DNA of 64,000 bases. It comes from a virus (Duplodnaviria > Caudoviricetes). Each line of letters begins with the position of its first letter. Position 1 is the stretch's first letter. The position numbers and the translations under genes are program-made. The stretch is from positions 1-64,000 of IMG/VR virus record IMGVR_UViG_3300005713_000004; one strand, 5' to 3'. Below, piece by piece: positions 4,041-59,322 of the stretch. Below the pieces are notes generated by a model. That model was not told where the DNA came from. It did not search any database and saw nothing but the letters and a program-made list of their open reading frames with translations.

Positions 4041-5054
4041 TCACGCTTGCCACCGGACCGGGGCGAAGCGGGCCGCCTGCGGGCGCCGGTCGGACAGGTC
4101 GATCGTGTCGCCGCGCCGGAGCGCCTCGACGAGGGTCGTGTCCACGTCCAGCGGCGCGGAGATCCGGACCACCGGGTCCACGTCCACCACGACCGCGTCC
4201 GGGCGCTCGAACGACGCTTCGAGGCGCGGGCCGCGCTGCGCGAGCGCGTCGACTACCCGCGCCACCGGCGGCGCCTCGCACGTCCACTCGTGGACCTCGT
4301 CGATCACCACGAATCGGGGCGAAGCGCCACGAATGTAGGGGTTGACACCGGCCAGGATTCCGGTAGGGCGCCACCGGGACAGGTCGTCGGCGAAGCGGGC
4401 GAGCGCCTCCCCCGCAGCAGCGAACGCGGCGACGATCCCGTCCACCGACGAGCCCAGCGACGCGAACACGGCCGCCACCTCCCCTTCGGAGGGGATCCAC
4501 GAGGGCCGGGCCGGAGGGAACGCCCACTCGTCCGGGACGAGCGGCATCGTGCCCTCCGCATAGACCGGGGAGTGGGCCTCGACGTCCTCGCGGTCGTACC
4601 CGTGCGCGATCGCGTCCGTGATCGCGTTCTCGTCGACCAGCATCGGGGCAGGCGCGCCCCACTCGAACGGCCACGCGAGGTCGTCGTTCCGCTCGTCCCC
4701 GGCCGCTGCGAGGGCGCCAGCAGCCGCGTACGCGCTCCGGGAAGCGTCGGAGGACAGGTGGGGCGCTCCGGGGCCCTGCGGCGTCGCAGCGGCGGCGAGC
4801 CGGGCCGCAGCATCGGTCACGGCCGGATCCGGGGCCCCGGAGATGCCCTCCGCGATCCCGTCGGCCCACAGCCCGGCGATAAGCCGGGCCTCATGGGCGG
4901 AGATCGCCCCGCCCTCGTTCTGCCGCAGTAGCGCAGCCTCGACGGCGAGCAGGTCCACCATGGTCATGCCCTCGCTCCGCGCCGCGTGGAACCGACGAGG
5001 ACGAGCCGGGTCGTCCGGGTTGGACGCCTCGAAGCGGCGCGGTCCGGTGCACAT
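4041..5054 (-). CDS. hypothetical protein
   Basis: Acidic protein-like sequence; start coupled to stop of the DUF1353 gene. Confidence 0.6.
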   Translation of the reverse strand: MCTGPRRFEASNPDDPARPRRFHAARSEGMTMVDLLAVEAALLRQNEGGAISAHEARLIAGLWADGIAEGISGAPDPAVTDAAARLAAAATPQGPGAPHLSSDASRSAYAAAGALAAAGDERNDDLAWPFEWGAPAPMLVDENAITDAIAHGYDREDVEAHSPVYAEGTMPLVPDEWAFPPARPSWIPSEGEVAAVFASLGSSVDGIVAAFAAAGEALARFADDLSRWRPTGILAGVNPYIRGASPRFVVIDEVHEWTCEAPPVARVVDALAQRGPRLEASFERPDAVVVDVDPVVRISAPLDVDTTLVEALRRGDTIDLSDRRPQAARFAPVRWQA

Positions 5055-5833
5055 CACGGCTTCCCTTCGCGGTCGGCGAGGTCTTCGAGCGCGACGAGGT
5101 CCACGGGTTCGCTGTGGGCGCCTTCGCGGCCCCACCACAGGACGTCCCCGTCCCACCACGTCGTCCCGCCCAGCCGGAGCGCAGCAGCAGCGGCGCGGCT
5201 CTCGCGGTCGTCGCGCTGGACGATCTCCGCCCGGCGCTGTCGAGCCGCCTCCGCGCGCAGTGCTTCGAGGTCGAGTAGCGGGACCGGCTCGCCGGTGGGC
5301 AGGACGACCCCGGATGCGGGGGACGGCTCCGGGGGGCTGGCCTTCGCCGGGGAGAACCACTCCGCCACGAACAGCGGGGCGGAGCCCAGCGCGACGCCCA
5401 GCGCGCCCACGGCCATCCCGGGGAGCGCGGCGAGGCTGATCGCGAGGACGGGGAGCGCGGTCCGCCACCACTCCGACGCCCGGCCGCCGACGAGGGCGCC
5501 CCACCGGACACCGGCCCACATCAGCCACCGGCGGGGCGTGGACACGCCCAGCTCGCGGAGGATGCGGCGGAACACCCCGTCCGCGTCGATCGAGCAGATA
5601 CGGCCTGCGGGGAGTTCCTCCGTGAGCAGGTAGTCGTGCACGATCGCGGCCCGCGTCCAGCGGCCGTAGGTGGGGATGAGCCACGCGGCGATCGGGGGTA
5701 CGGAGGCGTAGTCGGTGACGTAGCCCTTCGGGATGGTCCACGTGTCGTGCGAGCCCTTGTAGACGAGCGGCTCCGCGAGCCGCCACGTCCGATCCGCAGC
5801 GGGGGTGACCAGTAGGCGCGTGGTGAACGGCAT
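5054..5833 (-). CDS. DUF1353-family protein with C-terminal TM segment
   Basis: GYVTDYASVP...AAIVHDYL...AD..F motifs; TATAAT 6 nt upstream of ATG suggests a leaderless mRNA. Confidence 0.85.
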   Translation of the reverse strand: MPFTTRLLVTPAADRTWRLAEPLVYKGSHDTWTIPKGYVTDYASVPPIAAWLIPTYGRWTRAAIVHDYLLTEELPAGRICSIDADGVFRRILRELGVSTPRRWLMWAGVRWGALVGGRASEWWRTALPVLAISLAALPGMAVGALGVALGSAPLFVAEWFSPAKASPPEPSPASGVVLPTGEPVPLLDLEALRAEAARQRRAEIVQRDDRESRAAAAALRLGGTTWWDGDVLWWGREGAHSEPVDLVALEDLADREGKP

Positions 5834-14796: not shown

Positions 14797-14901
14797 GCCC
14801 CCCATCCTGCTCCGATCCACGGTACCCAGGTATTGTATCGGCAGGCGTTCCACTTCGGAACGCGGGAGGAGTTCGGGGCATGGACCAGACGGGGAGGCCC
14901 G

Positions 14902-15117
14902 GTGGCGGAACCGGTAGTACCGCTGCTCGCGGAACTGCGAGCGCTGCGGGAAGCGAGGGACCGGTGGCACAGCCGGGCGCCGGAGATCGTCCGGCTGCTG
15001 CGGGAACAGGGGGTGAGCCTGCCCGCGATCCGGGAGGCGACCGGGGTCGCGCAGGCGACCGCGCATCGGCTCGCGTCCTCCACGTCGCGCAACTCACGCT
15101 CGCCGGACCCCCGGTGA
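14902..15117 (+). CDS. small HTH DNA-binding protein (candidate transfer-operon regulator)
   Basis: GGGGAGG RBS; GVSLPAIREATGVAQATAHRL helix-turn-helix pattern. Confidence 0.7.
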   Translation: MAEPVVPLLAELRALREARDRWHSRAPEIVRLLREQGVSLPAIREATGVAQATAHRLASSTSRNSRSPDPR

Positions 15118-15223
15118 ACGTGTGCGACGAGCGGCCGTGGCAGGCGGCGGAGGCGGACGCGGAGCAGTGCCGCGCCTGCCAGACGAAGCAGTGGGTTCGG
15201 GCCGGGCGACAGGGAGAGACCCG

Positions 15224-15418
15224 ATGATCGCGGCGGCTGCGCTCGCCGTGATCCTGCTGGGCGTCCTGCTGTTCCGGGGCGACGCCGGGCGCGTCGGGAT
15301 CCTCGTCGCGTTCGCCTGCGGCTCCGTGCTGTCCGGCGCGGCGATGCTGTGGGGTCTCGGATACGACCTGCTCGGCGTGGTCGTACAGGTGGCGTCGAGC
15401 GTGGCAGGGATCGGCTGA
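15224..15418 (+). CDS. small two-TM membrane protein
   Basis: Hydrophobic; stop overlaps start of next gene. Confidence 0.65.
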   Translation: MIAAAALAVILLGVLLFRGDAGRVGILVAFACGSVLSGAAMLWGLGYDLLGVVVQVASSVAGIG

Positions 15419-17031
15419 TGGCCACGTCCTCGACGAGTCGCCGCGCGGACGCGACCCCGGCGGCTCCGCCCACCCCCCCGGCTTCGCGTCCGGCGCAGGG
15501 TCGGCCGCAGCGGACCGACGCCCCCGGCGCCGACGAGGGCGTGGACACGAAGCGGCCCGGCCTGCCGGTGTGGGTCCTCGCGGTGCCCGCCGTGCTGGCC
15601 GTGGCGATGTGGATCGGGTGGGCGTTCGGGTGGGGGTGGGGTGTCGCGTTCGCGGTGGCCGCGCTGCTCGCCCTGCTCGTGTGGCGGCTGCTGGTCGCCC
15701 GGAAGGCCCGCGACGCGAAGAGCACGAAGGACGGGAAGGGCAGCCGGTCGGCCGCCCGGAGGGAGCGCAGGTGGAACAGGCGGACGACGGACGGGTCTAC
15801 CCGTTCGGGACAGCCGGGGTCGGCTCGTGGTCTTCGGGGGCTGGCACAGCGGCTGCGTGCGAGGGCTGCGGGGAACCCGTTCCGTGGCGGTACCTCCGGT
15901 GGGGGCCGGTCGAGCGGGACGGGCGGGTCGTCGTCGAGCGGCTCGAACCGGCGTGGCACCCGGCGTGCGGGCGGCGGGCCGCGTGGCAAGGGCTCCGGGC
16001 TGATGTCGCGACGGCGCGGGATGCGGTCGTCCTCGTCGGGGAAGGGCTCGCCCGGCTCGTCCCGCCGATCGTCGGGGCCGTCGGGCCCGTCCTCGAAGCG
16101 GGGGTCCCGATCGTCGTCGAGCGGTTCGGGGTGGTGGTCGCGACTGCGCGGGAAGTCGGGCGCGTCCACCTCGTCCAGGCGCGGCGGGGGCTCCGGTGGG
16201 TCCGGGTCGACCGGGTCGGGCGGGCGGCCGGGCGGTGGGTCGGGGGGCTCGTCGTCCGGGTGGACGCGGCGCGGCAGGAGTGGGCGCGCGGGGTGGGCTA
16301 CACCCGGGCGTGGCGGCGGGCACTCGACGGGGACGACGAGGTGGGTCCCGTGGTGGCGGCGCCGGGGTGGCGCGGGTGGGACGTCCTCCCCGGGGGGGAG
16401 CGGTTCCGGCCGCTCGCGCCGGGGGAGTTCGAGCGGTGGGGGTTCCGGTGGGACGGGCGGCACGCCTCCGTCATCCGGCGGGACCCGGCCGCAGGGGAAG
16501 CGGGCCCGGCTTCGGGGGCGGGGGTCCTCGACGCCTTCCGGCGGTTCGACGGGATCGGGCCCAGCGGGCACGGGGACGTGGACACGCCGTCGCAGCAGCG
16601 GCGGCGCCGACAGGGCCGCAGGCCCGGACAGGAGTAGCGACATGCCGAAGAGCAGCAGCGCGCCGCGTGGGCGGCGGGGGACCGGGGCCGGGCCGTGGGG
16701 CCCGATGGTGGACGCGGCGGCGAACGTCGCCCGCGCGTTCTCCGACCCGGTGGCCATGGAGGGCGTGAACGCGCTCGACACGGCCGGGGACGCGTGGGAG
16801 CAGATGGGCCGGTCCGTCAAGGTTGTGGGCGCCACGATCGCCGACGAGATCGATTGGGACCCGCGCGTGGCCCGGTTCTTCGAGGTGATGGGGGACGTCC
16901 TCATCCGGGCTGCGAAGCCCGCCCGCGACGGTGCCGCCGCTGTCCGGCGCGCGGAGCACGAGCGGATCAACAACGTGGAGGAGGGCGGCTCGCGCCGTCG
17001 CCGGTGGGATATCAGCGCCCACGACAACTAG
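15418..17031 (+). CDS. TraA-like accessory transfer protein (TM, long Gly/Ser/Arg linker, helical C-terminal domain)
   Basis: C-terminus AEHERINNVEEG...RWDISAHDN resembles proteins encoded just upstream of traB on actinomycete plasmids; position. Confidence 0.55.
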   Translation: MATSSTSRRADATPAAPPTPPASRPAQGRPQRTDAPGADEGVDTKRPGLPVWVLAVPAVLAVAMWIGWAFGWGWGVAFAVAALLALLVWRLLVARKARDAKSTKDGKGSRSAARRERRWNRRTTDGSTRSGQPGSARGLRGLAQRLRARAAGNPFRGGTSGGGRSSGTGGSSSSGSNRRGTRRAGGGPRGKGSGLMSRRRGMRSSSSGKGSPGSSRRSSGPSGPSSKRGSRSSSSGSGWWSRLRGKSGASTSSRRGGGSGGSGSTGSGGRPGGGSGGSSSGWTRRGRSGRAGWATPGRGGGHSTGTTRWVPWWRRRGGAGGTSSPGGSGSGRSRRGSSSGGGSGGTGGTPPSSGGTRPQGKRARLRGRGSSTPSGGSTGSGPAGTGTWTRRRSSGGADRAAGPDRSSDMPKSSSAPRGRRGTGAGPWGPMVDAAANVARAFSDPVAMEGVNALDTAGDAWEQMGRSVKVVGATIADEIDWDPRVARFFEVMGDVLIRAAKPARDGAAAVRRAEHERINNVEEGGSRRRRWDISAHDN

Positions 17032-17076
17032 GCCGCAGGGCCTAGGCAGTACCAACCACCACCACAGGAGGACCAC

Positions 17077-19377
17077 GTGTCGGAGACGCCTACCCGGATC
17101 ACGATCCCGCCCGCGCTGGGCTACCCGGTGTTGGGCGTCCTCGTCGTGTTCATCGCCGGGTGGCTCTACACGTTCGCCGGGGCGGAGCACTTCGCGCCGT
17201 GGTGGCTCCTGCTCGCCGTGCCGGTGCTGGGCTTCCTCGGCGCCGCGCTCGCCCGGACCTTGTGGGCGGACGTCGCGTACGGGGTCGCCCAGCAGCGGGC
17301 GGCGGTGTGGTTCGCGTGGGTCGCGGCGGCCGGGGCGGGGGCGTGGCTCACGTGGGCCGGGCTCGTCACCCCGGGCGCCGCGCTCCCGCTGCTCGTGTTG
17401 GGCGCCCTGCCGTTGTGGGGGTGGTTCGCGATCCTGTGCCTGCGGGCGCCGAAGGCCCACGCCCGGCAGGTCGAGCGCCGGGAGGAAGGGCGGCAGATCG
17501 TCCAAGAACGGTCGTGGCGGACGATCCTCGACCGGTCGGGGTCGGAGGACGTGGTGATCACGGAGGTCCGAGAGCACCGGGCCGGGATGGTCCTCACGGT
17601 CGAGCCGGACCCGGACGCGGCGAAGTTCCCGACGTACGACGAGTTCGCGGGCCGGGCGCCGTCGATGGCGACGCAGGCGGCGATGCACTACCGGCGGACC
17701 TCGAACACGCGGCTTCCGAAGAACTGCGTCCGGACGGAGCCGGGCCGCGACGACGCAGAGTTCCTCGTCCACATCACGATGCGGGACGTGTTCGGGGCCT
17801 CGACGTGGTACCAGCCGGACGAGGTCCCGGGGGACATCGCGGACCCGGTGGATCTGGGCGAGTACGAGGACGCGGCACGGCTGCTGCTCCCGCTGGACGC
17901 GAACACGAAGATCGTGGGGGCGACGGGGGCGGGGAAGTCCAACCTCGTGAACAACATCATCGGGCGGATCACCGGCACCATGAACGCGCTCGTGTGGGTC
18001 GCGGCCACGGACAAGTTGGTCCCGCTCGTGTGGCCGTGGCTGCGGGCGTGGCTGTCGGGGAAGACGAGCCGCCCGATCCTCGACTACGTCGCTGGGCAGG
18101 ACATCGACTCCGTGTTGCGGCTGCTGCGGGCGACGTACCGGCTCGTCTGCGAGCGCAACGCCCGACTTGAGGACGAGTCGAAGATCCGGCCGACGGCGGA
18201 CCTGCCGGTGGTGTTCGTGATCCTCGAAGAGGTGTCCCACCTCACCGACTTCCCGGACACCATCCGGACCCACGACGGGATCGACTGCACGGCTTCGGAC
18301 CTGCTCAAGATGATTGCGCAGGCGGACCGGTCGGCGGGGGTCCGGCTGTTCATGCTGTCGCAGTACGGGATCAACGCGGCTCTCGGCGACCGGGCGTCGG
18401 AGTTGATCCGCAACATCACGTGCAGGATCTGCCTTCGGACCATGGAATCCCACGACGGGTTCCGGACCCTGCCGGGTCTGCCGTCGACCGTGGACACGAC
18501 CTCGCTCGCAAACTTCACGATGTACGTGCAGCCGAACACCGAAGAGGCGCGGGCGTTCCCGGCGAAGGCGCCGGAACTGGACGGCGCCGAGCAGGTCGAG
18601 CCGGTCGCGATCGGGAACACCCGGTGGCGCCCGGCCGGGGTCGAGCCGGAGGTGGCCGCGCTGCTCGGCCTCGACTACGAGCGGCGGTGGGCGTCCTCGC
18701 GCCTGCCGATCCTGGCGGCCCCGGTGGCGAGGCGCGGGTGGGAGTGGCCCGGCGAGCAGGTGGCGCCGGTCCCGGTCCCGGCGGCGCCGGTCGACGAGGT
18801 GGACGAGGGGTCGCCCGTGGCGGGCGGCCCGAACGATGGGGGGGACAGCGTGGATACGACCATGAGTCCGGAGGACGAGGACGCGTTCCGGCGGCTGCTC
18901 GGCGGCGACGAGCCGGAGCAGCGGCAGGGACCGGCTGCGGCTGCGTCGGTCGCGGTCGACCGGGACGAGGACACGAGCGGGCGCGCGGCGCCGTTCGAGG
19001 TCCCCGACTTCGGCGCGGAGATGGCGGAGATGGAGGCGCTCGCGGCGGACATCGCGGCGAACCCGTTCGTCCCGGGTCGCGATCAGGACGCGACCCGGGA
19101 GGCTGGTCCGGGTCGCCCGGTCCCCGACCCGCTCGACCGGGTCGTCCGGTGGCTGGACTCCGTCCCGGTCGACGAGGACGCGTGGGTCCGGACGGAGGAA
19201 CTCGTGTTCCGGATCGGGTGGGACCGGGACGCGGCGGCTCTCGGTCGGGCGCTCGCGAAGTTCCCGGGCGTCCGGTCGGACAACCTGCCCCGGCAGTTCG
19301 ACCCGCAGCAGCGGAAGGGCTACCCGGTCCGGATGCTTCGGGAGGCGGCGACCCGGTACCGGTTCGGGTCGCCGTAG
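17077..19377 (+). CDS. traB: TraB-type FtsK/SpoIIIE DNA translocase (actinomycete conjugation ATPase)
   Basis: N-terminal TM helices, Walker A GATGAGKS, Walker B VFVILEE, DRSAGVRLFMLSQ arginine-finger region, acidic linker, C-terminal winged-helix-like domain. Confidence 0.88.
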   Translation: MSETPTRITIPPALGYPVLGVLVVFIAGWLYTFAGAEHFAPWWLLLAVPVLGFLGAALARTLWADVAYGVAQQRAAVWFAWVAAAGAGAWLTWAGLVTPGAALPLLVLGALPLWGWFAILCLRAPKAHARQVERREEGRQIVQERSWRTILDRSGSEDVVITEVREHRAGMVLTVEPDPDAAKFPTYDEFAGRAPSMATQAAMHYRRTSNTRLPKNCVRTEPGRDDAEFLVHITMRDVFGASTWYQPDEVPGDIADPVDLGEYEDAARLLLPLDANTKIVGATGAGKSNLVNNIIGRITGTMNALVWVAATDKLVPLVWPWLRAWLSGKTSRPILDYVAGQDIDSVLRLLRATYRLVCERNARLEDESKIRPTADLPVVFVILEEVSHLTDFPDTIRTHDGIDCTASDLLKMIAQADRSAGVRLFMLSQYGINAALGDRASELIRNITCRICLRTMESHDGFRTLPGLPSTVDTTSLANFTMYVQPNTEEARAFPAKAPELDGAEQVEPVAIGNTRWRPAGVEPEVAALLGLDYERRWASSRLPILAAPVARRGWEWPGEQVAPVPVPAAPVDEVDEGSPVAGGPNDGGDSVDTTMSPEDEDAFRRLLGGDEPEQRQGPAAAASVAVDRDEDTSGRAAPFEVPDFGAEMAEMEALAADIAANPFVPGRDQDATREAGPGRPVPDPLDRVVRWLDSVPVDEDAWVRTEELVFRIGWDRDAAALGRALAKFPGVRSDNLPRQFDPQQRKGYPVRMLREAATRYRFGSP

Positions 19378-19567
19378 GCTGTCCGGGTCGTCCCGTCCTG
19401 CTACGCGACCCGCTACGTGGGTCGGGGCGACCCGGACAGCCACCGGCGCGCGGCGAGCCGGAGCGGGTCGCCGGACCGGGGTGGACGACCCGGGAGAACC
19501 TGCTCCACGCGAGAGGCCCGGCCCCGACGGGGGCCGGGCCTCTCTGCTGTCCCGGGTTAGCGACCCG
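19071..19567. repeat. clt-like cluster of CGACCCG repeats (about 15 copies)
   Basis: Counted in the traB 3' end and downstream intergenic DNA; resembles the GACCCGGA TraB recognition repeat of pSVH1. Confidence 0.65.
19511..19544. terminator. bidirectional hairpin between convergent units
   Basis: Perfect 15-bp stem, 4-nt loop. Confidence 0.75.
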
Positions 19568-19898
19568 CGAGCCAATCGTTGAACCGGTCGCGAGCCTCTT
19601 CCTCGGACCCGGCGTAGTAGCCGCCGCCGGGGCCTTCCTCGAAGTAGCGTTCCGCCGCGCGCTCCGCCGCGATCTCCGCCCGGTGCTCGGCCTCCCATTC
19701 CTGCTGAATCGCCCAGCAGTGTCGGACGTGGGCAACGGTGGCGTGGCGGACGATCGCGTCCGGCCCGGTGACGCCGTAGCCCCGTTCGGTGTCGGAGCAG
19801 GATCCGCAGCGGACGCCGTCCGCTGTGCGCTCCGGGAGGCGGTAGTACTCGATCTCGTCGATCGGGCGGGCGGTGGCGGCCGTGGTGAGGGTCGACAT
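19557..19898 (-). CDS. hypothetical protein (CxxC, HxxxC)
   Basis: GGAGG RBS after boxA-like leader. Confidence 0.7.
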   Translation of the reverse strand: MSTLTTAATARPIDEIEYYRLPERTADGVRCGSCSDTERGYGVTGPDAIVRHATVAHVRHCWAIQQEWEAEHRAEIAAERAAERYFEEGPGGGYYAGSEEEARDRFNDWLAGR

Positions 19899-19916
19899 CG
19901 TGTCCTCCGGTGAGGG

Positions 19917-19990
19917 TCTCTGTTGAGTTTTCAACCGGACCCGGTGGGCCCGACACGAGAGACATTACACGGCGACCCACGACCACGCAA
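19917..19990 (-). promoter_or_regulatory. promoter TTGCGT-17-TAATGT plus hairpin and boxA-like TTGAAAACTCAACAGAGA
   Basis: Repeat-family match. Confidence 0.75.
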
Positions 19991-20034
19991 GCCCCCTGCG
20001 CGACCCGTTGCAGATCGAGACCCCACCGTGACCC

Positions 20035-20157
20035 GCAACGGTTGCGCAACCGTTGCGCCCAGCCGTGGACACGGCCAAAGCCCCCTCCCCACCTGCGAAA
20101 ACACCGCGAGGGGGGAGAGGGCTCCGCGTGCAACGGTTACAGCCGCAACGGTTACAG
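20035..20157. repeat. GCAACGGTT palindrome and direct repeats
   Basis: 22-bp perfect palindrome at 20035-20056; GCAACGGTTACAG twice (20130, 20145). Confidence 0.7.
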
Positions 20158-20721
20158 GACCAGCAATGCGACCCCCACCCACGACATCACCGACACCGGG
20201 AAGTACAGCCACGCGAGGCGGCTCGCTTCGACCTCGGACCCCGTCGAGAACACCCGCCCGATCCGCAGCCGCCCATCCCGAACCGCCGTGTAGTACCCCC
20301 GGTCGCGGCCGGGCCACGGGATCCCCGACATCGTCCGAGCGTCCCCCCACAGGTGGACGCAGCAGCCCACGAACACGCAGGCCCACCACCACACCGCCAT
20401 GACCGGGCCGCCCAGCGGCGCCGGGACCAGCAGCGCCAGCAGCGCCACCGGGAGCCCGAACACCGCCGCTGCGGACCTCGTGTGCGTCCACCCCCTGTGC
20501 TCCACGAACAGGCACAGCAGCCACGACACGAGCCGCGTCGCCGGTCCGAGCGAGTGGGTCACCGTCGAGCCCGGGTGGTCGAGGTCCGGCAGGAGAGCGG
20601 AGTACCCGACGAGGATCCCGCCGAGCACGGCCGCCGGGAGCGGGACGCCCAGCCCGTGACCCGCCCCGGCGACCCACGACCCGGCGGCGAGCCCGGTCGT
20701 GAGGTGGCTCCGGGCCATCAT
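20152..20721 (-). CDS. YdjM-family membrane metal-dependent hydrolase
   Basis: RSH...ALLPDLDH...HRGWTH...HLWGDA motifs. Confidence 0.85.
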   Translation of the reverse strand: MMARSHLTTGLAAGSWVAGAGHGLGVPLPAAVLGGILVGYSALLPDLDHPGSTVTHSLGPATRLVSWLLCLFVEHRGWTHTRSAAAVFGLPVALLALLVPAPLGGPVMAVWWWACVFVGCCVHLWGDARTMSGIPWPGRDRGYYTAVRDGRLRIGRVFSTGSEVEASRLAWLYFPVSVMSWVGVALLVL

Positions 20722-21644
20722 GACGCGGACTCCGCGTCCTGCTCGACCGGAGCCGGGACGGGTCGCACAGCGGGTCGCGCGTCCCGGGCCTGCGCGAGCA
20801 GCCGGGTTGCCTTCGACCCGCCGCAACCCGCGTGCTCCCGGACCGCCTTCGCGGTCGGCGGGCGGCCGACCCGGTCCCACTCCGACCCGATCCACGCGAC
20901 CGTCGCCGGGTCGTCCGGGTCGCCGACCCGGGTTGACCCGGCGGGTCGTGCCGGGTTGCGGGTCGCCGGGACCCGGGTCGGGGCCTTCCGGTCGGGACGG
21001 GTCGCCGGGTCGGCGACGGCCGGGACGGGTCGCGAGACGACCTGCTCGACCCGGGTCGTCGGGCGGGCGGCGAGCGCGGCGCCTACGGCGTCCCGGATCG
21101 CGTCCCGCTGCTCGACCCGGATCGCGTCCCGGATGCGCTCCGGGTCGGCGGAGACCGGGATGCCGACGAGGTGGGTCACGGGCCACGTCGTGTCCACGTC
21201 CGCGCGCATCCGGGCGACGTAGTCGCGGACGCGGCCCAGCATGACGGCGACGAGTTCGAGGGTGACCGCGAACGAGATCGGGGCCCACACGGCGGCGGCG
21301 AGGCGGCCGACGCCCTCGCCGACGGACGGGGCGCCGAACGCGTCGGCGCTCGCGAGGTTCGCGGCGATGGTGCCGATGAACCCGACCCCGAACGCGAGCC
21401 ACGGGACGAAGCCGATCGGCTGCTGCGCCCAGCGGCGGGAGTACATCACCACGAGCGCGGCGATCAACATCCCGTCGGTGGTGAGCGGGAGCCACGCGGC
21501 GCGGGACTCCGCCTCGCCGTAGGTCCGGAACACCTCGTACGCGTGGTGGTAGGAAGCGACGGCGGCGGGCCCGCCGACGGACGCGAGGATCGCGGCGATA
21601 CCGAGCAGCATCGCGGCGACCGCGAGAGCGGTTCGGGTGGTCAC
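20718..21644 (-). CDS. DUF2637-family spread-type membrane protein with C-terminal HTH
   Basis: ASYHH...GE...AWLPLTTDG, four TM helices, PPTAKAVREHAGCGGSKATRLL winged helix. Confidence 0.8.
   Translation of the reverse strand: MTTRTALAVAAMLLGIAAILASVGGPAAVASYHHAYEVFRTYGEAESRAAWLPLTTDGMLIAALVVMYSRRWAQQPIGFVPWLAFGVGFIGTIAANLASADAFGAPSVGEGVGRLAAAVWAPISFAVTLELVAVMLGRVRDYVARMRADVDTTWPVTHLVGIPVSADPERIRDAIRVEQRDAIRDAVGAALAARPTTRVEQVVSRPVPAVADPATRPDRKAPTRVPATRNPARPAGSTRVGDPDDPATVAWIGSEWDRVGRPPTAKAVREHAGCGGSKATRLLAQARDARPAVRPVPAPVEQDAESAS
20759..21147. repeat. second CGACCCG cluster (about 20 copies) inside the DUF2637 gene
   Basis: Encodes ATRP/DP-rich linker; mostly direct repeats on the coding strand. 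Confidence 0.7.
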
Positions 21645-22084
21645 GGGAGGATCTCCAGTCGGACGGAGCGGGTGATGTCGTGGCCGTTGTCGTCGAGCAG
21701 CGCGACCGGCTCCGCGCGAACCTCGATCAGGTCCGACGGCGGGCGGCGCGTGGTGGTGGCGGTGGCGCGCATGAGGGTCATGTGGTGGGCGACGGCGACC
21801 GCGTCGGCCGGGTCTTCGGCGATGTGGACCCCGACGACCTGCTCGTCCGCGTAGTGGCCGACGAGCAAGATGTACGCCTGCGTGCGCGGCTGCTCCGGGT
21901 CGGTGGCGCCCAGCCGCTCCGCTTCGCGGGCGACGGCTTCGCGGTAGGCGTGTCCGGTGTCGCGGACGATCAGGCAGGCGGCGCGGTGACGGAGCCCGGC
22001 GCCGGTGAGCCCGGCGCCGATCGGGCAGGTCATCTCACAGTCGTCGCGGGCCTCGAAGTAGTTCGCGGGGGTGAGGGTGTCCAT
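21641..22084 (-). CDS. hypothetical protein
   Basis: AGGAG RBS; coupled to the DUF2637 gene. Confidence 0.65.
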   Translation of the reverse strand: MDTLTPANYFEARDDCEMTCPIGAGLTGAGLRHRAACLIVRDTGHAYREAVAREAERLGATDPEQPRTQAYILLVGHYADEQVVGVHIAEDPADAVAVAHHMTLMRATATTTRRPPSDLIEVRAEPVALLDDNGHDITRSVRLEILP

Positions 22085-22268: not shown

Positions 22269-22314
22269 CTGTCCGGTCCTTCCGTTGGGGCCGCTGTCCG
22301 GCCCGACACGACAG

Positions 22315-22378
22315 ACATTACACGCCCCCCGTGGGTCACGCAACCCCCTTGCGTGAACCCACGGCAGGCGTGTAACGT
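22315..22378. promoter_or_regulatory. back-to-back divergent promoters (TTGCGT-17-TAATGT leftward; TTGCGT-18-TAACGT rightward)
   Basis: -35 boxes form CACGCAA-N5-TTGCGTG; gene orientation switches here. Confidence 0.8.
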
Positions 22379-24595: not shown

Positions 24596-25288
24596 ATGAG
24601 CGACAACGACACCACCACCGGCCCCACCTACCGACTCACCCGCGAGGACTGGTTGCACCGGGCGACCGACATCCTCCGCCCGATGTTCGAGCAGGTGGGC
24701 GCCACCCTCCCCGACGTGATCCACCTGTCCGTCGGCTTCGGCGGCTCCGGCGCCGGGAAGTACGAGCGGTTCGTAGAGGGCGTCACGTGGTTCCGCGCGG
24801 CCGACGCCTGCGGCCACAACCACGTGTTCATCTCCCCGACGCTGGGCGACACCGCCCACGTCCTCGAAGTCCTCGTTCACGAACTGTGCCACGTTGCCAC
24901 GGACAACGTGGGTGGTCACGGGGGCGAGTTCGCGGAGTTCATGACCCGGCTAGGCATGACCGGGCGGATGACCACCGCGCAGGCGGACGTGCCGTTCATG
25001 GCGGAGCTGATGGTCATCGCGGCGGAGTTGGGCGACTACCCCCACGGGGCGCTCGACATGGCGCCCGTCAAGGTCGAGGCGCCGGTGGGCCCGGACGGGA
25101 TCGAGATCCCGGTCGGGCGGCCGACCAGCGGCCCGAAGGCGCAGACAAACCGGTGGATCTCGTTCTCCTGCCCCGTCCACGACGCGCCGGTCCGGATGTC
25201 GCGGACGAAGGCGGCTCTCGGCGCCCCGTACTGCGGCCACCGGGACGAGCAGGGCGTCCCGTGCCTCACGGAGATGGTGGCGCGGTAG
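24596..25288 (+). CDS. SprT-like zinc metalloprotease with C-terminal Zn ribbon
   Basis: VLVHELCH...HGGEF; CP.H...PYC. Confidence 0.8.
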   Translation: MSDNDTTTGPTYRLTREDWLHRATDILRPMFEQVGATLPDVIHLSVGFGGSGAGKYERFVEGVTWFRAADACGHNHVFISPTLGDTAHVLEVLVHELCHVATDNVGGHGGEFAEFMTRLGMTGRMTTAQADVPFMAELMVIAAELGDYPHGALDMAPVKVEAPVGPDGIEIPVGRPTSGPKAQTNRWISFSCPVHDAPVRMSRTKAALGAPYCGHRDEQGVPCLTEMVAR

Positions 25289-30466: not shown

Positions 30467-31039
30467 ATGGACTGGCGGCACGGCGCCCACTGCCGGGGCG
30501 CGAGCGAGCCGGAGGTGTGGTTCCCGGTCGACGAGGACCAGGGCCACGACGCGCCGGGTGTGGTTCGGGCGCGCCTCGCCTGCGCGCCGTGCCCGGTCCG
30601 GGCGGAGTGCCTGTCATGGGCCTTCGAGTCCGGGCAGACGGCCGGTGTGTGGGGCGGGATGTCGACGCCGGAGCGCCGGGCCCTGCGCGCCCCGGAGCGG
30701 CTCCGTGTGGCCGCTGCTGCGGCGTCGGACCGGCGAGCCCGGGAGGACGCACAGCGGGACGCACAGGAGGACGCAGGCGCCAGCACGGAGGGCGGGGCGG
30801 GGGACACCCTGCCTCGCCCTCGTCGGCGGCGGGGTGGCCAGCCGCCGGGGACGACGCGGGCCCACCGGTCCGGGTCGGTCGGCCGCTGCGCCACCTGCTC
30901 GAAGCGCCTCGACCTGCGCGCGGACGGGCGAGTCGTCCGGCACGACCGGGTGTTGGACGGGAAGCGTGGGCACTGCCCCGGCTCCGGCGAGGTGTCGGCG
31001 GTCGAGGCGCTTCCCGGGTCGGGGCGTGTCCACGGGTAG
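30467..31039 (+). CDS. whiB: WhiB-family Fe-S transcription regulator with C-terminal extension
   Basis: C...WFP...CAPCPVRAECL...GVWGG...ERR. Confidence 0.9.
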   Translation: MDWRHGAHCRGASEPEVWFPVDEDQGHDAPGVVRARLACAPCPVRAECLSWAFESGQTAGVWGGMSTPERRALRAPERLRVAAAAASDRRAREDAQRDAQEDAGASTEGGAGDTLPRPRRRRGGQPPGTTRAHRSGSVGRCATCSKRLDLRADGRVVRHDRVLDGKRGHCPGSGEVSAVEALPGSGRVHG

Positions 31040-32943: not shown

Positions 32944-33406
32944 CGACCAGCGGCCGGAGCGCAGCAGCCGGGACGAACCACGCCCGGCGGTGGCCGTGCG
33001 GGTTCCGCTCCCACTCCGGCCGCTTCGCCGCCCTCCCGAGGATCGAGCCCCGGACCGTCATCGTCGGCGGCTCGCCCGTCACGAGGTAGAACCACCGGTC
33101 GTCCGCGTCGTTGTCCCGCACGATCAGGCACCCGTCCGCGCGGGCGGTGGAGCGGACCTCGACGTTCGAGCCCATGTCCGCGAGCGCGTGGAACGTGCCC
33201 ACCGACGGGGACCAGAACCGGCCGACCGCCTTGCACAGGGCCATCTCACCGCAGGCGCCCACGACCTCCTGTGCCATCCGTTCGAGGTAGCCGCGCTGGT
33301 ACGTGGACGCGTGGTCGTGTCCACGCTCCGACGACTCGACGAAGCGTGCCATGCCCACCCCGGCGGCCGTCGCGAACTCGCGCGGGGTGAGCACAACCAG
33401 CGTCAC
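32906..33406 (-). CDS. hypothetical protein, possible PD-(D/E)XK-like fold
   Basis: GACGEMA...ADMGSNVEVRST. Confidence 0.6.
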   Translation of the reverse strand: MTLVVLTPREFATAAGVGMARFVESSERGHDHASTYQRGYLERMAQEVVGACGEMALCKAVGRFWSPSVGTFHALADMGSNVEVRSTARADGCLIVRDNDADDRWFYLVTGEPPTMTVRGSILGRAAKRPEWERNPHGHRRAWFVPAAALRPLVVTGGVAASGRPA

Positions 33407-33939
33407 GCCGGGACCGGCTGCGCCTTCGGGGCGTACCGCGTCGGCCCGGTCTCCCCGGTCACGAGGTCCCGCCACTGCGGGCCGTCGAACAGCGCCCCGC
33501 CCCACAGCCCGTCGTACCCCCGGTCGAGCGCGGTCGCCCGGCACAGGTCCCGCACGGGGCACGCGGCGCACAGCCCCCGCGCGGCGCGGCTGCGCGCGTC
33601 CCGCTGCTCCGCCCGCTGCTGCTCGTCCACCTCGTCGTCGGGGTCCGGCTCCGGCTCGAACGCGGACGGCGGGAGCGGGACCAGCACGCAGCGGAGGTCC
33701 CCTCGCCGTCGCCACGCAGGCTCGTCCTCCGGGCGCTCCGCCGGGACCTGCTCGGCGACGTTGCCCCGGCGGGCGCGCGGGTCGGCGCCGCCGTTGCGGG
33801 CCCGCCACGACACGCAGGTGTCGCAGGCGCCCGGCTCGCGGTCGGCGGCGGTGGACAGGAGACCCGTCTTCCCGCCGCCGCTGGACCACGTCGCGCGGAG
33901 GCAGTACCGGCACAGACCGGCGTACGTCGGGAGGCTCAT
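33403..33939 (-). CDS. whiB: WhiB-like protein with N-terminal Zn finger
   Basis: CRYC...CDTC then LRC...CAACPVRDLC...GLWGG. Confidence 0.75.
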   Translation of the reverse strand: MSLPTYAGLCRYCLRATWSSGGGKTGLLSTAADREPGACDTCVSWRARNGGADPRARRGNVAEQVPAERPEDEPAWRRRGDLRCVLVPLPPSAFEPEPDPDDEVDEQQRAEQRDARSRAARGLCAACPVRDLCRATALDRGYDGLWGGALFDGPQWRDLVTGETGPTRYAPKAQPVPA

Positions 33940-40220: not shown

Positions 40221-40708
40221 GCGCGCTTCGCCATCGTCCGGGTCATGCTCGCTTCGAGCGCGGGGCGCACGTGCTCCGGCGCCTGCGCGAGGATCTCGCC
40301 CAGTCGGGCCGGGCCGCCCTGCTCGATCCCGGCGGGGCGCGGCTCCGCCCCGGTCTCCGCCCAGTGGTGCAGGACGCCCGCGACGTGGCGGGCCATCTGC
40401 TCGCGGTACCACTCCGGGTAGGTCATCCCGTCCGGGAGAGCGCCCGGGATGACGGGGTCCTCGAACGAGTCGGCCGCCTTCCGGCGGATCTCGCGGAGCC
40501 GGTCGGAGATCGCGGCCGGGGAGATCCGGGGGCGGGCCGCGTCGCGGGAGTAGTGCTCCACGATGACGCGGGTCACGGCGGCGCCGTCGTCCCACCGCTC
40601 CGCCTGCGCGACCATCTGCCACGCCTTGACGTCAATCTCCGAAACCTTGCGCTGGTCGAACGTGGCGGCGAGCGCCACGAGATCGACCATGTCGTCCCAC
40701 TCGATCAC
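40217..40708 (-). CDS. helicase loader/inhibitor-like protein
   Basis: AATFDQRKV...AW...V.EHY; directly downstream of the initiator. Confidence 0.65.
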   Translation of the reverse strand: MIEWDDMVDLVALAATFDQRKVSEIDVKAWQMVAQAERWDDGAAVTRVIVEHYSRDAARPRISPAAISDRLREIRRKAADSFEDPVIPGALPDGMTYPEWYREQMARHVAGVLHHWAETGAEPRPAGIEQGGPARLGEILAQAPEHVRPALEASMTRTMAKRA

Positions 40709-41640
40709 TATCCGGTCCTGCCTTCCGTGGTGGATCCCCCGCGCTTGAGCGCGAGGACAGCGGAGACGCGCTCCGCCGTGGTGCCTTCGCCGAGACCACC
40801 GTTGACCGTGCGGTCCGGGCCTCGACGGGCCGGGGCGAGGGAGGGGGGCGGGTCGGAGTACCGGCCCTCGTTTAGCCACCGCGACGGGTGGACGATGAAC
40901 CGCTCTTCCGTCCGGGCCGCCTGCCAGTACCGGGCGTACACCTCCATGCGTCGGGTCATCGTCGCGGCGTCGAGGTCACTCCGCTTGAGCGCCTTCGTGA
41001 ACGCCTTCGCTGCGGCTTCCTTGCCCACCTTGCGGGGGCACGCTTCCCAGAACGCGGCGAACTCCGGGGAGTAGCGCACGTGCGGCGTCGAGCGCGGAGC
41101 GCTTGACGAAGTGTTTTCCGTAGTTGTTGGGATGGGGAGGGGAGGGGAGGGGAGGGGTCGGTGTGACTCCCCTGTGACTCCGGCGTCCGTCACATCGTCG
41201 TCACGTGTGACATTCTCGTCGGTCACGCGTGACCCGAACGTGACACCTCCGCCGGGTCCATCGTCGTCCGGGGGGCCGAACGTCCCGTTCGCCTGCCGCG
41301 CCCGCTCCCGGCTGCGCCGCTTGCGCTCCGCTCCGTCGGCCCGCGCCGCCTCGACCTGCTCGCGGGTCTTGTTCGACCCGGCCCAGTCGTGGAACCGGTA
41401 CCCCTCGTCCTCGTCCGTCTTGTCCTCGACCCACAGCCCCACGCGGACCAGCGCCCGCGCCATGTCGAGCGTCGGGTCCCACGACATCACGATGTAGTCG
41501 GGGACGAACCCGTCGGTGAGGTGGGCGCTCGCCCACGACCCGGCCGTGACCCACAGCCCGGAGGCGGCGAGGCGGTCGGCGCCCAACTTCGCGAACTTCC
41601 GGTGGCTGTGCATCTGATCATCTACCGCCATCCATGGCAC
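40708..41640 (-). CDS. phage replication initiator (lambda O-like)
   Basis: MPW..VDD..HSH.K, TDGFVP, GYRFHDW; C-terminal F..FW.A.PRKVGK...HPSRWLNEGRY. Confidence 0.85.
   Translation of the reverse strand: MPWMAVDDQMHSHRKFAKLGADRLAASGLWVTAGSWASAHLTDGFVPDYIVMSWDPTLDMARALVRVGLWVEDKTDEDEGYRFHDWAGSNKTREQVEAARADGAERKRRSRERARQANGTFGPPDDDGPGGGVTFGSRVTDENVTRDDDVTDAGVTGESHRPLPSPPLPIPTTTENTSSSAPRSTPHVRYSPEFAAFWEACPRKVGKEAAAKAFTKALKRSDLDAATMTRRMEVYARYWQAARTEERFIVHPSRWLNEGRYSDPPPSLAPARRGPDRTVNGGLGEGTTAERVSAVLALKRGGSTTEGRTG
41104..41245. other. candidate replication origin inside the initiator gene
   Basis: Clustered GTGAC/GTCAC repeats, two GTCAC-NN-GTGAC palindromes, adjacent AT-richer tract. Confidence 0.55.
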
Positions 41641-46526: not shown

Positions 46527-46816
46527 TGCTCGATCTCCTCGTATGTGGCGCGGTACCGCTCGTCGGACAGGATCCGGACGGTGGACGCGCGGGGGTCGAA
46601 CACGACCCACGATCCGGGCTCGACCCACAGGTCCCGGCCCAGTGCTTCGATGACGAGGACGGAGCGGCTACCGGTGCCCTCGCCCAGGTGGGATCCGAAC
46701 CGGACGCGGATCTCCAGCCACGCGAGCATCCGGCCCACGTTCGCCATGTCGGTGTCCGGCGTCCACCGCATGGCCTCGAACTCCGGCCGCCGCTCGACCA
46801 CGATCCGGGCGGTCAC
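46523..46816 (-). CDS. hypothetical protein
   Basis: Overlapping junctions. Confidence 0.55.
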   Translation of the reverse strand: MTARIVVERRPEFEAMRWTPDTDMANVGRMLAWLEIRVRFGSHLGEGTGSRSVLVIEALGRDLWVEPGSWVVFDPRASTVRILSDERYRATYEEIEQ

Positions 46817-59043: not shown

Positions 59044-59322
59044 CTATCCGGGCTTCGTGATGCGTCCGAGGATGATCGGAGCGCCGGGTGTGATCAAGAG
59101 CAGGACGCGGCCGACCGCGAGCGCGGCGGGGTCGCCGACGAACGCGAGGTTCACGAACTCCTGCGTCCCGGAGAACAGGACGCGGTTCGCGCCGGTGAGC
59201 GGGTCCCACTCGGACATGTAGCCGGGCATGATCTGCTGCTCCCCGCCGCCCGGCTGTCCGGCGAGGTACTGGCCCAGTCGCTGCCCCATCAGGCGTTCGG
59301 CTTCGTGTAGACGCGAACCCAC
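59044..59322 (-). CDS. minor tail protein
   Basis: OB-like beta pattern ending ILGRI. Confidence 0.65.
   Translation of the reverse strand: MGSRLHEAERLMGQRLGQYLAGQPGGGEQQIMPGYMSEWDPLTGANRVLFSGTQEFVNLAFVGDPAALAVGRVLLLITPGAPIILGRITKPG

Follow-up and report, generated by a model that had tools for sequence, protein, structure and literature searches.

The locus described here raises the question of why a tailed phage carries a membrane ATPase of the FtsK/SpoIIIE/TraB superfamily among membrane-protein genes and clusters of a short DNA word, and which DNA such a motor would move. A first-pass annotation took it for a TraB-type conjugation module in a phage/plasmid hybrid of a kind not yet described. 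The present analysis leans, by a little, towards the module being a TraB-like apparatus for transfer or spreading of the double-stranded phage genome, based on which genes are present, on fold and repeat arrays, on conservation and on how the module relates to those of phage-plasmids.

Genome and module

The window (the whole 64,000-nucleotide stretch analysed) comprises bases 1-64000 of a complete tailed-phage genome of 76.7 kb (76,733 bp). This actinophage genome comes from a soil metagenome and has 73% GC, spread evenly along its length. PHROGs matches place a tape measure, tail proteins and an endolysin in the same genome, and a search of the whole 76,733-bp record found neither a tyrosine nor a serine integrase, both as the first-pass annotation stated. 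No ParA or ParB, no recognisable repressor and no GntR TraR/KorA regulator were found in the phage genome, which does contain two WhiB genes. Two assemblies begin at the same base, as plain virion DNA from a lytic phage could also do, and this is counted against a transfer role. A promoter-like word, GTGTAATGTCT, occurs in 24 copies versus 2.3 expected and is always oriented with the downstream genes. The module as a whole (14.9-22.1 kb) consists of a rightward operon and convergent leftward genes.

The ATPase

17077..19377, + strand: membrane ATPase of 766 aa, FtsK/SpoIIIE/TraB superfamily (motifs, AlphaFold fold, family scores)

Motif residues and the AlphaFold model agree with the initial description of a 766-aa protein with transmembrane (TM) helices, Walker motifs and a winged-helix-like domain. 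Walker A (GATGAGKS) occupies residues 281-288 and Walker B (VILEE) residues 381-385. In the AF2 model (pLDDT 79), four N-terminal TM helices (residues 12-142) precede a RecA-like motor, a disordered stretch (residues 556-685) and a C-terminal domain (pLDDT 94) with a winged-helix fold (Rex Z 7.0, MarR Z ~5). Foldseek places FtsK motors on top (E 1.5e-13), followed by TcpA, EccC and HerA.

The label 'TraB-type' is upheld for the TraB/FtsK architecture and the clt-like arrays at the 3' end of the gene, but not for family membership: NF041214 plasmid_TraB matches with 33-34 bits (E 2e-8) against a cut-off of 800 bits, and in a control this profile gave weak matches in 9 of 14 genomes, including E. 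coli and B. subtilis. Pfam FtsK_SpoIIIE aligns with the P-loop only (E 0.027), the EccCa HMM with just 90 residues (E 1.5e-5) and PHROG 31069 with E 2e-15. A profile of the ATPase's own family scores 11 bits with pIJ101 Tra, 18.5 bits with pZL12.71c and 339 bits with PIS136 gp41. As judged by sequence profiles, the ATPase is distant from the curated TraB and FtsK families, which is counted against a transfer role.

Its structure also bears on a different reading, that of an FtsK/SpoIIIE/SffA-like pump for segregation or septum clearance, with the arrays of the phage or prophage genome as its recognition sites. Copies would be pumped through closing cross-walls or sporulation septa, securing inheritance of a ParAB-less replicon with no cell-to-cell transfer. 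FtsK motor domains are the best structural matches, the four-TM anchor and winged helix mirror the FtsK membrane and gamma domains, and a replicon without parAB and integrase would find another inheritance device useful. Given the arrays and relatives described below, this reading is nevertheless considered unlikely.

Rightward genes upstream of the ATPase

14902..15117, + strand: HTH protein of 71 aa, first gene of the rightward operon (weak HTH matches)
15224..15418, + strand: 2-TM protein of 64 aa with two hydrophobic, TM-like segments (translation, tblastn conservation)
15418..17031, + strand: long ORF of 537 codons, the TM-linker-CTD protein (frame open in 10 of 10 genomes)
15771..16637, + strand: ORF of 288 codons in an alternative frame, overlapping the long ORF's linker (annotator calls, tblastn)
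16642..17031, + strand: C-terminal domain (CTD) of the long ORF, 129 aa (conserved in-frame Met-Pro)

The HTH protein and the small TM protein are both present as first annotated. The former matches Raf1_HTH (E 2.8e-5), HTH_IclR (E 4.7e-4) and PHROG 6831 'transcriptional regulator' (E 6e-5), and tblastn finds homologues at 40-57% identity in the relatives L001-L005. The latter is conserved in L001, L003, L004 and L005 (tblastn) and matched no family in family profile searches.

The long ORF corresponds to the previously noted TM plus Gly/Ser-rich protein, a description refined here by the overlapping ORF. Its Pro/Thr-rich N-terminus is followed by a hydrophobic, TM-like stretch, a Gly/Ser/Arg linker of ~300 residues and a conserved CTD ending in RRWDISAHD. 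Under synonymous resampling, the per-genome probability that the frame is open by chance ranges from 0.002 to 0.92, with a product of ~1e-12. The same architecture is found in pZL12.72c and in a 690-aa protein adjoining the ATPase in S. anulatus CP109520 (CTD blastp E 3e-5).

Metagenome gene callers pick the 288-codon ORF over the long ORF in every relative. This ORF has a conserved CxxC...HxxC (zinc-ribbon-like) motif, better codon usage than the long frame and 37-44% identity to three relatives (tblastn, E down to 5e-35). Its substitution profile is flat (0.32/0.28/0.29), compared with 0.17/0.12/0.27 for the ATPase gene. Dual coding of the two ORFs is possible. The 129-aa CTD may additionally be produced on its own: its M(P) start is kept in 10 of 10 genomes, it is 55-57% identical to genes of 136-149 aa in L001, L004 and L002, and in the ESM Atlas it has its own protein entry, with unnamed actinobacterial proteins as the nearest clusters.

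Convergent leftward genes

19557..19898, - strand: gene of 113 aa (ORF and GC3 signal)
20152..20721, - strand: YdjM-family membrane protein of 189 aa (PF04307 E 1.7e-20, above cut-off)
20718..21644, - strand: DUF2637 membrane protein of 308 aa (PF10935 E 4e-7)
21641..22084, - strand: gene of 147 aa, first of the leftward operon (49-53% identity to L001 and L005 genes)

The leftward operon runs from the 147-aa gene through DUF2637 to YdjM, with a promoter-like GTGTAATGTCT unit upstream at 22313-22323 (- strand). The 113-aa gene is poorly conserved among relatives and has its own GTGTAATGTCT unit at 19960-19970 (- strand). The YdjM-family protein, a putative metal-dependent hydrolase, is encoded in all eight relatives with sequence spanning the region and in an Actinoalloteichus phage-plasmid. 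The DUF2637 protein scores 30.5 bits against PF10935 (cut-off 22.8), and 1.34 kb separate the 3' end of its gene from that of the ATPase gene, in agreement with the convergent gene first reported 1.3 kb away. Its identity as an Spd protein is not supported; pIJ101 SpdB does not match PF10935. DUF2637 genes adjoin ATPase homologues in PIS136, S. anulatus CP109520 and Saccharothrix CP193625.

Repeat arrays and other DNA elements

19073..19567, both orientations: array 1, ~14-15 CGACCCG/CGGGTCG words (word count)
19511..19544, unstranded: perfect 15-bp GC-rich hairpin (direct sequence reading)
20005..20157, unstranded: second repeat set, 4-5 copies of GCAACGGTT (two copies form a palindrome)
20677..21147, both orientations: array 2, 19-20 CGACCCG/CGGGTCG words in 470 bp (word count)

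The reported clustering of CGACCCG holds up in counts: the window has 121 copies versus 82 +/- 9 in shuffles, and 32-33 of the 144 genomic copies are packed into ~1 kb. Two stretches contain 14 and 18 copies per ~500 bp, where the rest has 0.74, and no other windows of the genome are as dense. Array 1 spans the final 300 bp of the ATPase gene plus the next 190 bp, with words often spaced 16-22 bp apart. Array 2, the densest cluster, sits inside the DUF2637 gene and encodes the low-complexity C-terminal half of its protein. Since its words occur in both orientations and all three codon phases, they belong to the DNA level and do not reflect amino-acid repeats.

Arrays of different words occur at or near equivalent sites in seven of nine relatives; none was seen in L004 and L006, which is counted against a transfer role. 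At the array-1 position, L001, L011 and L013 have arrays of CGGACCG. Array-2 equivalents with other words, in both orientations and all three phases, are present in L001, L005 and PIS136, and L003 and L013 also have arrays at this site. The words in the relatives are CGGACCG, CGGTACG, ACCCGGT/GGTGCAC and GACCGCTCC, with CGGAACC in PIS136. In the S. anulatus DUF2637 gene the word (CGAAGCG) keeps one orientation, yet falls in all three codon phases. Plasmid-specific clt repeats likewise differ by lineage (PMC4447253), and GACCCGG, 7 of the 8 bases of the pSVH1 TraB recognition sequence GACCCGGA (PMC5133688), is also contained in the word of this phage. The CTD of the L011 ATPase closely resembles that of this phage while its word differs, so co-variation of winged helix and word is not demonstrated, also a point against a transfer role.

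The arrangement of the words distinguishes between a loading site and a guidance system. KOPS/SRS, as expected of a segregation pump, are scattered and polar; here the words crowd into two loci and occur in either orientation, and a clt-type loading site therefore fits better. A further reading takes the arrays as regulatory binding sites and directs the module at the host or competitors instead of the phage genome, through superinfection or entry exclusion, interference with host FtsK-dependent septation or sporulation, or blocking of incoming plasmids. The PHROGs category of the module's matching families, 'moron, auxiliary metabolic gene and host takeover', points this way, as do the two WhiB genes and the link to host development that authors draw for Streptomyces phage FtsK-like and WhiB-like genes (PMC13587820). 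The category is, however, an annotation label and nothing more, and this reading leaves unexplained both the dense lineage-specific arrays beside a pump on the phage's own DNA and the conserved membrane-partner set shared with a transfer-proficient plasmid-phage. It is judged less probable still than segregation.

Two further elements lie between the genes. The hairpin separates the convergent ATPase and 113-aa genes and, from its sequence, is likely a bidirectional terminator; it is missing from the consensus terminator scan because it has no T run. The second repeat set is probably an operator or other protein-binding site; relatives keep its core CCGTTGC, mostly with A or G after it (6-12 copies of CCGTTGC(A/G) at the equivalent site in L005, L011, L012 and L013).

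Native status of the module

AICEs and plasmids typically carry TraB-type genes (PMC3218068, PMC9513070), and the module could accordingly be pictured as a once separate AICE or piece of a plasmid that entered the phage recently, a case that the first-pass annotation had named as refuting its view. Against this, the module keeps the same place and gene order in all nine relatives at just 40-62% protein identity; GC is uniform, no integrase was found and no AICE-type replication gene is seen in the module. Flanking att-like direct repeats were not found, and the leftward genes have the promoter-like unit that recurs across the phage. AICE insertion is effectively refuted by the conserved place and order and the lack of an integrase and att-like repeats, and is given next to no probability. 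Because order is kept in all nine relatives, the module is a native, conserved part of the phage genome.

Proposed mechanism

For transfer of the phage genome, the slightly favoured reading, we infer hexamer formation, the array-binding protein, which way and where to transport runs, and the phage lifestyle as follows. The 766-aa ATPase would be anchored in the membrane via its four helices and form an FtsK-type ring motor. Loading onto phage DNA would take place at the two arrays of 7-8-bp words, probably via the C-terminal winged helix, and the motor would pump the unprocessed double-stranded genome through a membrane or septum into an adjacent hyphal compartment or hypha. By analogy with TraB-Spd, the TM-linker-CTD, 2-TM, DUF2637 and YdjM-like proteins would make up the envelope-spanning part. 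If this is true, the phage genome could dispense with virions in spreading, moving between mycelia as a plasmid-like prophage, as in pZL12, or within an infected mycelium. With no GntR TraR/KorA, ParAB, integrase or recognisable repressor, a plasmid-prophage state is unproven, which also counts against the segregation pump. Also counted against transfer are a pattern scan of 185,579 species-representative genomes, which returned no relative, and the wide annotation of FtsK-like genes in Streptomyces phages without a known role (PMC11536984, PMC13587820).

Comparison with known systems

The ATPase shares its fold with chromosomal FtsK and T7SS EccC, and the four-TM anchor and winged-helix gamma domain with FtsK. 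Unlike FtsK, it has no long linker ahead of the motor, the linker instead joining motor and winged helix, and its words are locally clustered where KOPS are polar across the chromosome. Unlike EccC, it has one ATPase domain and not three.

Phage/plasmid hybrids are already known and are common in public data, so the supposed novelty of the hybrid does not stand. Replication, conjugal transfer and the plasmid/lytic-phage cycle of pZL12 (record GQ919031, Zhong et al. 2010) were characterised in 2010, according to papers that cite this work (PMC3583192, PMC4487206, PMC7157519). At least 30 Streptomyces 'plasmids' of ~85-94 kb have the pZL12-type terminase, and five of these also have this ATPase. 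As in pZL12 and such phage-plasmids (e.g. pSLE1), one replicon combines a structural and lysis set with an FtsK/TraB-like ATPase. The resemblance to a transfer module claimed at first is well founded in that the make-up equals that of the pZL12 region (homologous genes 71c-73c) that includes an experimentally defined transfer locus, with the ATPase adjoining a TM-linker-CTD protein and the latter a membrane protein. Conjugal transfer of pZL12 reportedly requires the tra gene along with two genes beside it (PMC3583192), which is a further point against a purely segregational role. ATPase identity is 24% to pZL12.71c (E 8e-6) and 26% to the S. anulatus protein. The phage differs in that its DUF2637 gene is convergent and 1.3 kb downstream, it lacks the ParA/ParB and integrase/recombinase of pZL12, no array was detected near the pZL12 genes, and it is known only from a soil metagenome whereas the pZL12 relatives are circular plasmids in isolates.

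Phage-plasmids from cultured actinomycetes also carry homologous modules: S. anulatus CP109520 (DUF2637, the 690-aa TM-linker-CTD protein, ATPase and terminase), which shares a DNA-level word array within the DUF2637 gene, Saccharothrix CP193625 (GntR, DUF2637, ATPase and tape measure) and the circular 59-kb Actinoalloteichus pGBA129-24a. In Saccharomonospora phage PIS136, gp41 belongs to the same ATPase family (32% identity, tblastn), and the DUF2637 gene beside it carries the CGGAACC array. The proteins of PIS136, Thermobifida phage P1312 and PHROG 31069 are annotated just as 'FtsK/SpoIIIE' with no role assigned in the records and papers examined, and arrays and partner genes are unannotated.

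TraB is described with a make-up similar to that of the ATPase, in which an N-terminal part and a DNA translocase are joined by a domain for clt recognition (PMC4447253). The phage module differs from TraB systems in that its ATPase is not plasmid_TraB by sequence, GntR TraR/KorA is lacking, a second, larger array lies within a membrane-protein gene, and the element is a tailed phage. It resembles those of pSVH1, pIJ101 and AICEs in having just one FtsK-like motor, membrane-associated and with its DNA-recognition domain at the C-terminus, in the 8-bp repeat cluster at the 3' end of the motor gene and in the small membrane proteins that accompany the motor (PMC4447253, PMC5133688). According to a suggestion by Thoma et al., SpdB2 homologues on actinophages might aid the spread of phage DNA (PMC4447253).

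Phage genome and setting of the module

The window comes from a single linear virus record of 76,733 bp, obtained from a soil metagenome, for which CheckV gives a completeness of 100% and in which no end repeats are found. Its GC content is uniform across the window (72-75%). PHROG searches assign the first six of the following features, and the last two are WhiB-domain genes:

62680 onward, tape measure
59289-62680, two tail proteins
53701-54528, endolysin
46813-47748, RecE-like exonuclease
40708-41613, replication initiator
within the window, DNA-polymerase exonuclease subunit
30467-31039, plus strand, WhiB-domain gene (E 1e-17)
33403-33939, minus strand, WhiB-domain gene (E 1e-8)

The two WhiB genes mark the genome as that of an actinophage. 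Past the window, on the same strand, lie ORFs that resemble large terminase, portal and capsid genes in size and placement. A match to PHROG 1158, 'tail assembly chaperone' (5054-5833, minus strand, E 3.5e-29), falls in the small-gene arm, about 50 kb from the tail genes, and an SprT-like metalloprotease-domain protein (24596-25288, plus strand; Pfam E 7e-6, PHROG 6361 E 2e-26) occupies the same place in relatives.

The first-pass annotation had reported no integrase, and the whole record indeed contains no match to PF00589 or PF00239 that would indicate a tyrosine or serine enzyme. Neither ParB nor a ParA-type ATPase is found in the genome; a replication initiator is present, so plasmid-type replication is possible. 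Among sequencing runs, phage DNA is present in the source soil sample only, and no RNA run is listed as holding the sequence. From that sample, an independent 48,853-nt Logan contig with no loose end shares its exact first base with the IMG/VR record, which is a weak hint of a defined physical DNA end.

The module begins with a rightward operon, in which the long ORF overlaps a second frame:

14902-15117, 71-aa HTH protein, first in the operon
15224-15418, 64-aa protein with two hydrophobic (TM-like) segments, second in the operon
15418-17031, long ORF
17077-19377, 766-aa ATPase with Walker A (GATGAGKS) and Walker B (VILEE) motifs

All elements listed by the first-pass annotation are present, namely the HTH and small TM genes, the ATPase motifs, the CGACCCG clusters, the DUF2637 gene and the tape measure, tail and endolysin genes. 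The HTH gene, small TM gene, overlapping pair, ATPase gene and convergent YdjM gene are arranged alike in all nine relatives whose contexts were retrieved, most of which also carry the DUF2637 gene. Full-length ATPase homologues are 40-62% identical and lie on metagenome contigs, three of them of 69-76 kb. Searched by megablast against phages and plasmids, the module has no match, and a tblastn search of the DUF2637 protein against phages returns none either. The ESM Atlas offers a 0.78 lead, and a lead only, to the 'TraA-like' Pfam family PF28214. Pattern scans of IMG/VR viral contigs and of 185,579 species-representative genomes find no relatives, which is weak evidence given the few peptide patterns used.

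The window contains 24 copies of the word GTGTAATGTCT, allowing up to two mismatches, where 2.3 are expected; they span 3460-32217, and the word precedes the leftward module genes. Copies up to 22323 are on the minus strand and those from 22370 on the plus strand, each oriented like the gene downstream of it. The word looks like the phage's own iterated promoter-like unit serving many single small genes. Between 14.2 and 22.6 kb, a scan for consensus promoters and terminators finds nothing.

These features bear on whether the module is a separate, recently inserted AICE, an alternative that the first-pass annotation had itself raised. No att-like direct repeats flank the module and no integrase is found; the module's place and layout are kept in relatives, and its leftward genes are preceded by the phage's own GTGTAATGTCT unit. 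The kept layout, the promoter-like unit and the lack of flanking repeats together rule out a recent AICE insertion, to which we assign only a minimal residual probability.

The module ATPase

The best named model for the ATPase is NF041214 (plasmid_TraB), whose match is confined to profile positions 172-288 and reaches 33.1-34.5 bits, against a curated cut-off of 800 bits. The same model gives 22 bits with the Tra protein of pZL12, a Streptomyces plasmid-phage, and weak matches in 9 of 14 control genomes, including E. coli and B. subtilis. Pfam FtsK_SpoIIIE (PF01580) reaches 14.4 bits (E 0.027; gathering threshold 24 bits) and covers only the P-loop at residues 275-295. PHROG 31069, 'FtsK/SpoIIIE-like', matches at E 2e-15, and a phmmer search against PDB sequences matches only the P-loops of ABC transporters.

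An AlphaFold (AF2) model built with 22 homologues (pLDDT 79) predicts four long hydrophobic membrane helices at residues 12-142, which are kept across the family alignment, followed by an alpha/beta domain with a RecA-like motor (159-555), a disordered, acidic stretch (556-685) and a compact C-terminal domain. Foldseek ranks FtsK motor domains first for the model (E 1.5e-13), then the conjugation coupling protein TcpA, EccC/EssC and HerA. Folded alone, the C-terminal domain is predicted with a winged-helix topology (pLDDT 94). Its VIA-align neighbours are DNA-binding winged helices, with modest scores (Rex, Z 7.0; MarR-type, Z about 5), and Foldseek returns nothing for it at E <= 0.001 (best match E 0.24).

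The faint profile scores, the predicted FtsK-type fold and the winged-helix-like C-terminus place the ATPase within the FtsK/SpoIIIE/TraB superfamily and outside the curated TraB family; as modeled, it is a divergent member with the TraB/FtsK domain plan. The first-pass identification as TraB holds in part. The motor motifs, predicted membrane helices and repeats at the 3' end of the gene agree with it, and the NF041214 score and the lack of a GntR regulator do not. For the latter, which would correspond to TraR/KorA, the kil-kor partner of traB, no GntR match is found among ten module ORFs scanned, and the operon opens with the 71-aa HTH protein in its place; a related Saccharothrix replicon does have a GntR gene.

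Identity with the T7SS protein EccC, which the first-pass annotation had proposed checking, is rejected: the ATPase has one ATPase domain against the three in tandem of EccC, and the EccCa model gives 23.9 bits over 90 residues, far below its cut-off of 509. A host- or competitor-directed function of the module is given a low probability. That the ATPase is a segregation pump, a reading to be set beside its FtsK-like motor and the missing ParA and ParB, is also unlikely, though rated a shade higher.

At E <= 1e-3 the ATPase family comprises 873 clusters at 50% identity. Some relatives are much longer, among them P0019 (940 aa), in whose motor the intein-type Pfam domain PF14890 is inserted, and P0033 (1286 aa). 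A tblastn search also finds a 32%-identical homologue in PP395638.1 ('Microcystis phage Mwe-JY05', 71 kb), for which the recorded cyanobacterial host looks odd.

Overlapping reading frames upstream of the ATPase gene

Ahead of the ATPase gene, gene callers choose an ORF of about 290 aa (15771-16637) with a conserved CxxC...HxxC motif, followed by one of about 130 aa. In another frame, 15418-17031 encodes a hydrophobic (TM-like) stretch and a Gly/Ser/Arg linker that lead into the same 130-aa domain. This is the TM plus Gly/Ser-rich protein of the first-pass annotation, and its frame is open in the phage under study and in all nine relatives. When synonymous codons are resampled with the protein of the other frame held fixed, the probability of openness is 0.002-0.92 per genome, with a product of about 1e-12. 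The same plan of TM segment, linker and C-terminal domain (CTD) is found in pZL12.72c and in a 690-aa protein adjoining the ATPase in Streptomyces anulatus CP109520, with which the CTDs align (E 3e-5). We conclude that the long ORF is genuine.

The overlapping ORF may be genuine too, in which case about 870 nt are read in two frames. Codon usage favors its zinc-ribbon frame, and divergence at codon positions 1/2/3 is all equal in the overlap (0.32/0.28/0.29) as against 0.17/0.12/0.27 in the ATPase gene. An openness test of 15771-16637 carries no weight, since that ORF itself set the limits of the region tested and the argument is circular.

Repeat arrays

CGACCCG occurs 121 times in the window against 82 +/- 9 in shuffled sequences. 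The two densest windows of the genome are the arrays at the 3' end of the ATPase gene (19073-19567, about 14-15 copies) and in the DUF2637 gene (18-19 copies), compared with 0.74 per 500 bp elsewhere. Within a low-complexity coding stretch, the word appears in both orientations and all three codon phases, so it is under selection at the DNA level and does not merely follow from amino-acid repeats. A candidate array in Saccharothrix was rejected as Lys-Pro codon repeats in one orientation and one phase, and provides a useful negative control.

The word differs among relatives. CGGACCG fills the same or nearby places in L001, L003, L005 and L011; L013 has CGGTACG plus CGGACCG, L012 has ACCCGGT/GGTGCAC and L002 has GACCGCTCC. 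In L004, L006 and pZL12 no array is found. The DUF2637 gene itself holds a CGGAACC array in phage PIS136 and a CGAAGCG array in the S. anulatus phage-plasmid. Element-specific 8-bp repeats define the clt sites of TraB proteins (PMC4447253), and the word of the present phage has GACCCGG in common with the pSVH1 recognition sequence GACCCGGA (PMC5133688). From their sequence, the arrays appear to behave like cis-acting, clt-like sites. No co-variation of the word with the C-terminal winged helix emerges: the domain of L011 is near-identical to that of the phage under study, and its word is different.

A second repeat set, GCAACGGTT/CCGTTGC(A/G), separates the YdjM gene from the small gene that follows it (20005-20157); it has 4-12 copies and recurs in L005 (~8770), L011 (~5750), L012 (~3810) and L013 (~7875). 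Its CCGTTGC core, unlike the clt-like words, is identical in distant relatives, and the set is probably an operator.

The DUF2637 protein matches PF10935 at 30.5 bits (gathering threshold 22.8). A PF10935 search of pIJ101, which carries SpdB, finds no match, and the resemblance to Spd proteins is limited to that of a multi-TM protein adjoining the motor.

Proposed function and comparison with known phage-plasmids

We judge it somewhat better than an even chance that the module works as a TraB-like pump moving the phage's own dsDNA from one hyphal compartment or hypha to another, the most likely of the functions considered. Its use could be either conjugal, with a plasmid-like prophage as the element transferred, or spread in the course of an infection, and both purposes are kept because no maintenance genes were found. 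Thoma et al. suggested that SpdB2 homologues on actinophages might assist the spreading of phage DNA (PMC4447253). A more specific and rather doubtful version is that of a non-lysogenic tailed phage whose TraB/Spd-like pump would drive its dsDNA genome, as it replicates, across hyphal cross-walls or into hyphae in contact, with no need of virions. The lineage-specific arrays in the DUF2637 gene would be the loading sites, and the two-frame stretch of about 870 nt (TM-linker-CTD protein plus overprinted zinc-ribbon ORF) would encode one partner.

Should the proposed function hold, the genomes of phages in mycelial actinomycetes could travel between compartments or hyphae as naked dsDNA in addition to travelling in particles, which would blur the boundary between phage infection and conjugation and have a bearing on gene flow in antibiotic producers. 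The non-lysogenic pump, if real, would constitute a second, virion-independent infection route in multicellular bacteria.

The first-pass annotation took a hybrid of phage and conjugative plasmid to be possibly undescribed; such hybrids are already known. Three citing papers (PMC3583192, PMC4487206, PMC7157519) present the replication, conjugal transfer and plasmid/lytic cycle of pZL12 (phage ZL12) as characterized in 2010. Its conjugal transfer is reported to depend on tra together with two neighboring genes (PMC3583192), and the annotation of pSLE1 drew on pZL12 (PMC4487206). The GenBank record of pZL12 (GQ919031) lists the FtsK-like 71c, the TM-linker-CTD protein 72c and the membrane-protein gene 73c adjoining phage structural genes. 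Terminases of its type are found in at least 30 replicons of Streptomyces, about 85-94 kb in size; five of these replicons are also among the ATPase matches. The ATPase under study is 24% identical to 71c (E 8e-6) and 26% identical to the S. anulatus protein (E 2e-18), and its family profile gives graded scores to the known proteins, as follows.

Table. Scores of the ATPase family profile (bits)
PIS136: 339
Saccharothrix: 200
Actinoalloteichus: 139
S. anulatus: 108
pZL12: 18.5
pIJ101 Tra: 11

Genes for tape measure, holin and lysin accompany the ATPase homologue on both the 92-kb Saccharothrix replicon and the circular, 59-kb Actinoalloteichus one.

The present phage differs from the pZL12-type phage-plasmids in that neither ParA nor ParB is found and in being a linear metagenome record rather than a circular plasmid in a host. 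It resembles them in combining structural and lysis genes, an FtsK/TraB-like ATPase and a TM-linker-CTD partner on one replicon. The kind already has an example in pZL12, and the module is a divergent new case. What the lineage contributes is a family that is well conserved and spread across metagenomes (873 clusters at 50% identity), together with cis sites that lend themselves to testing and whose word switches between relatives. It further adds the unusual siting of arrays within a membrane-protein (DUF2637) gene and a candidate pair of genes with a long overlap. Three of these points go further than the first-pass claim: that the arrays are lineage-specific, that they sit in that gene, and that two genes may overlap.
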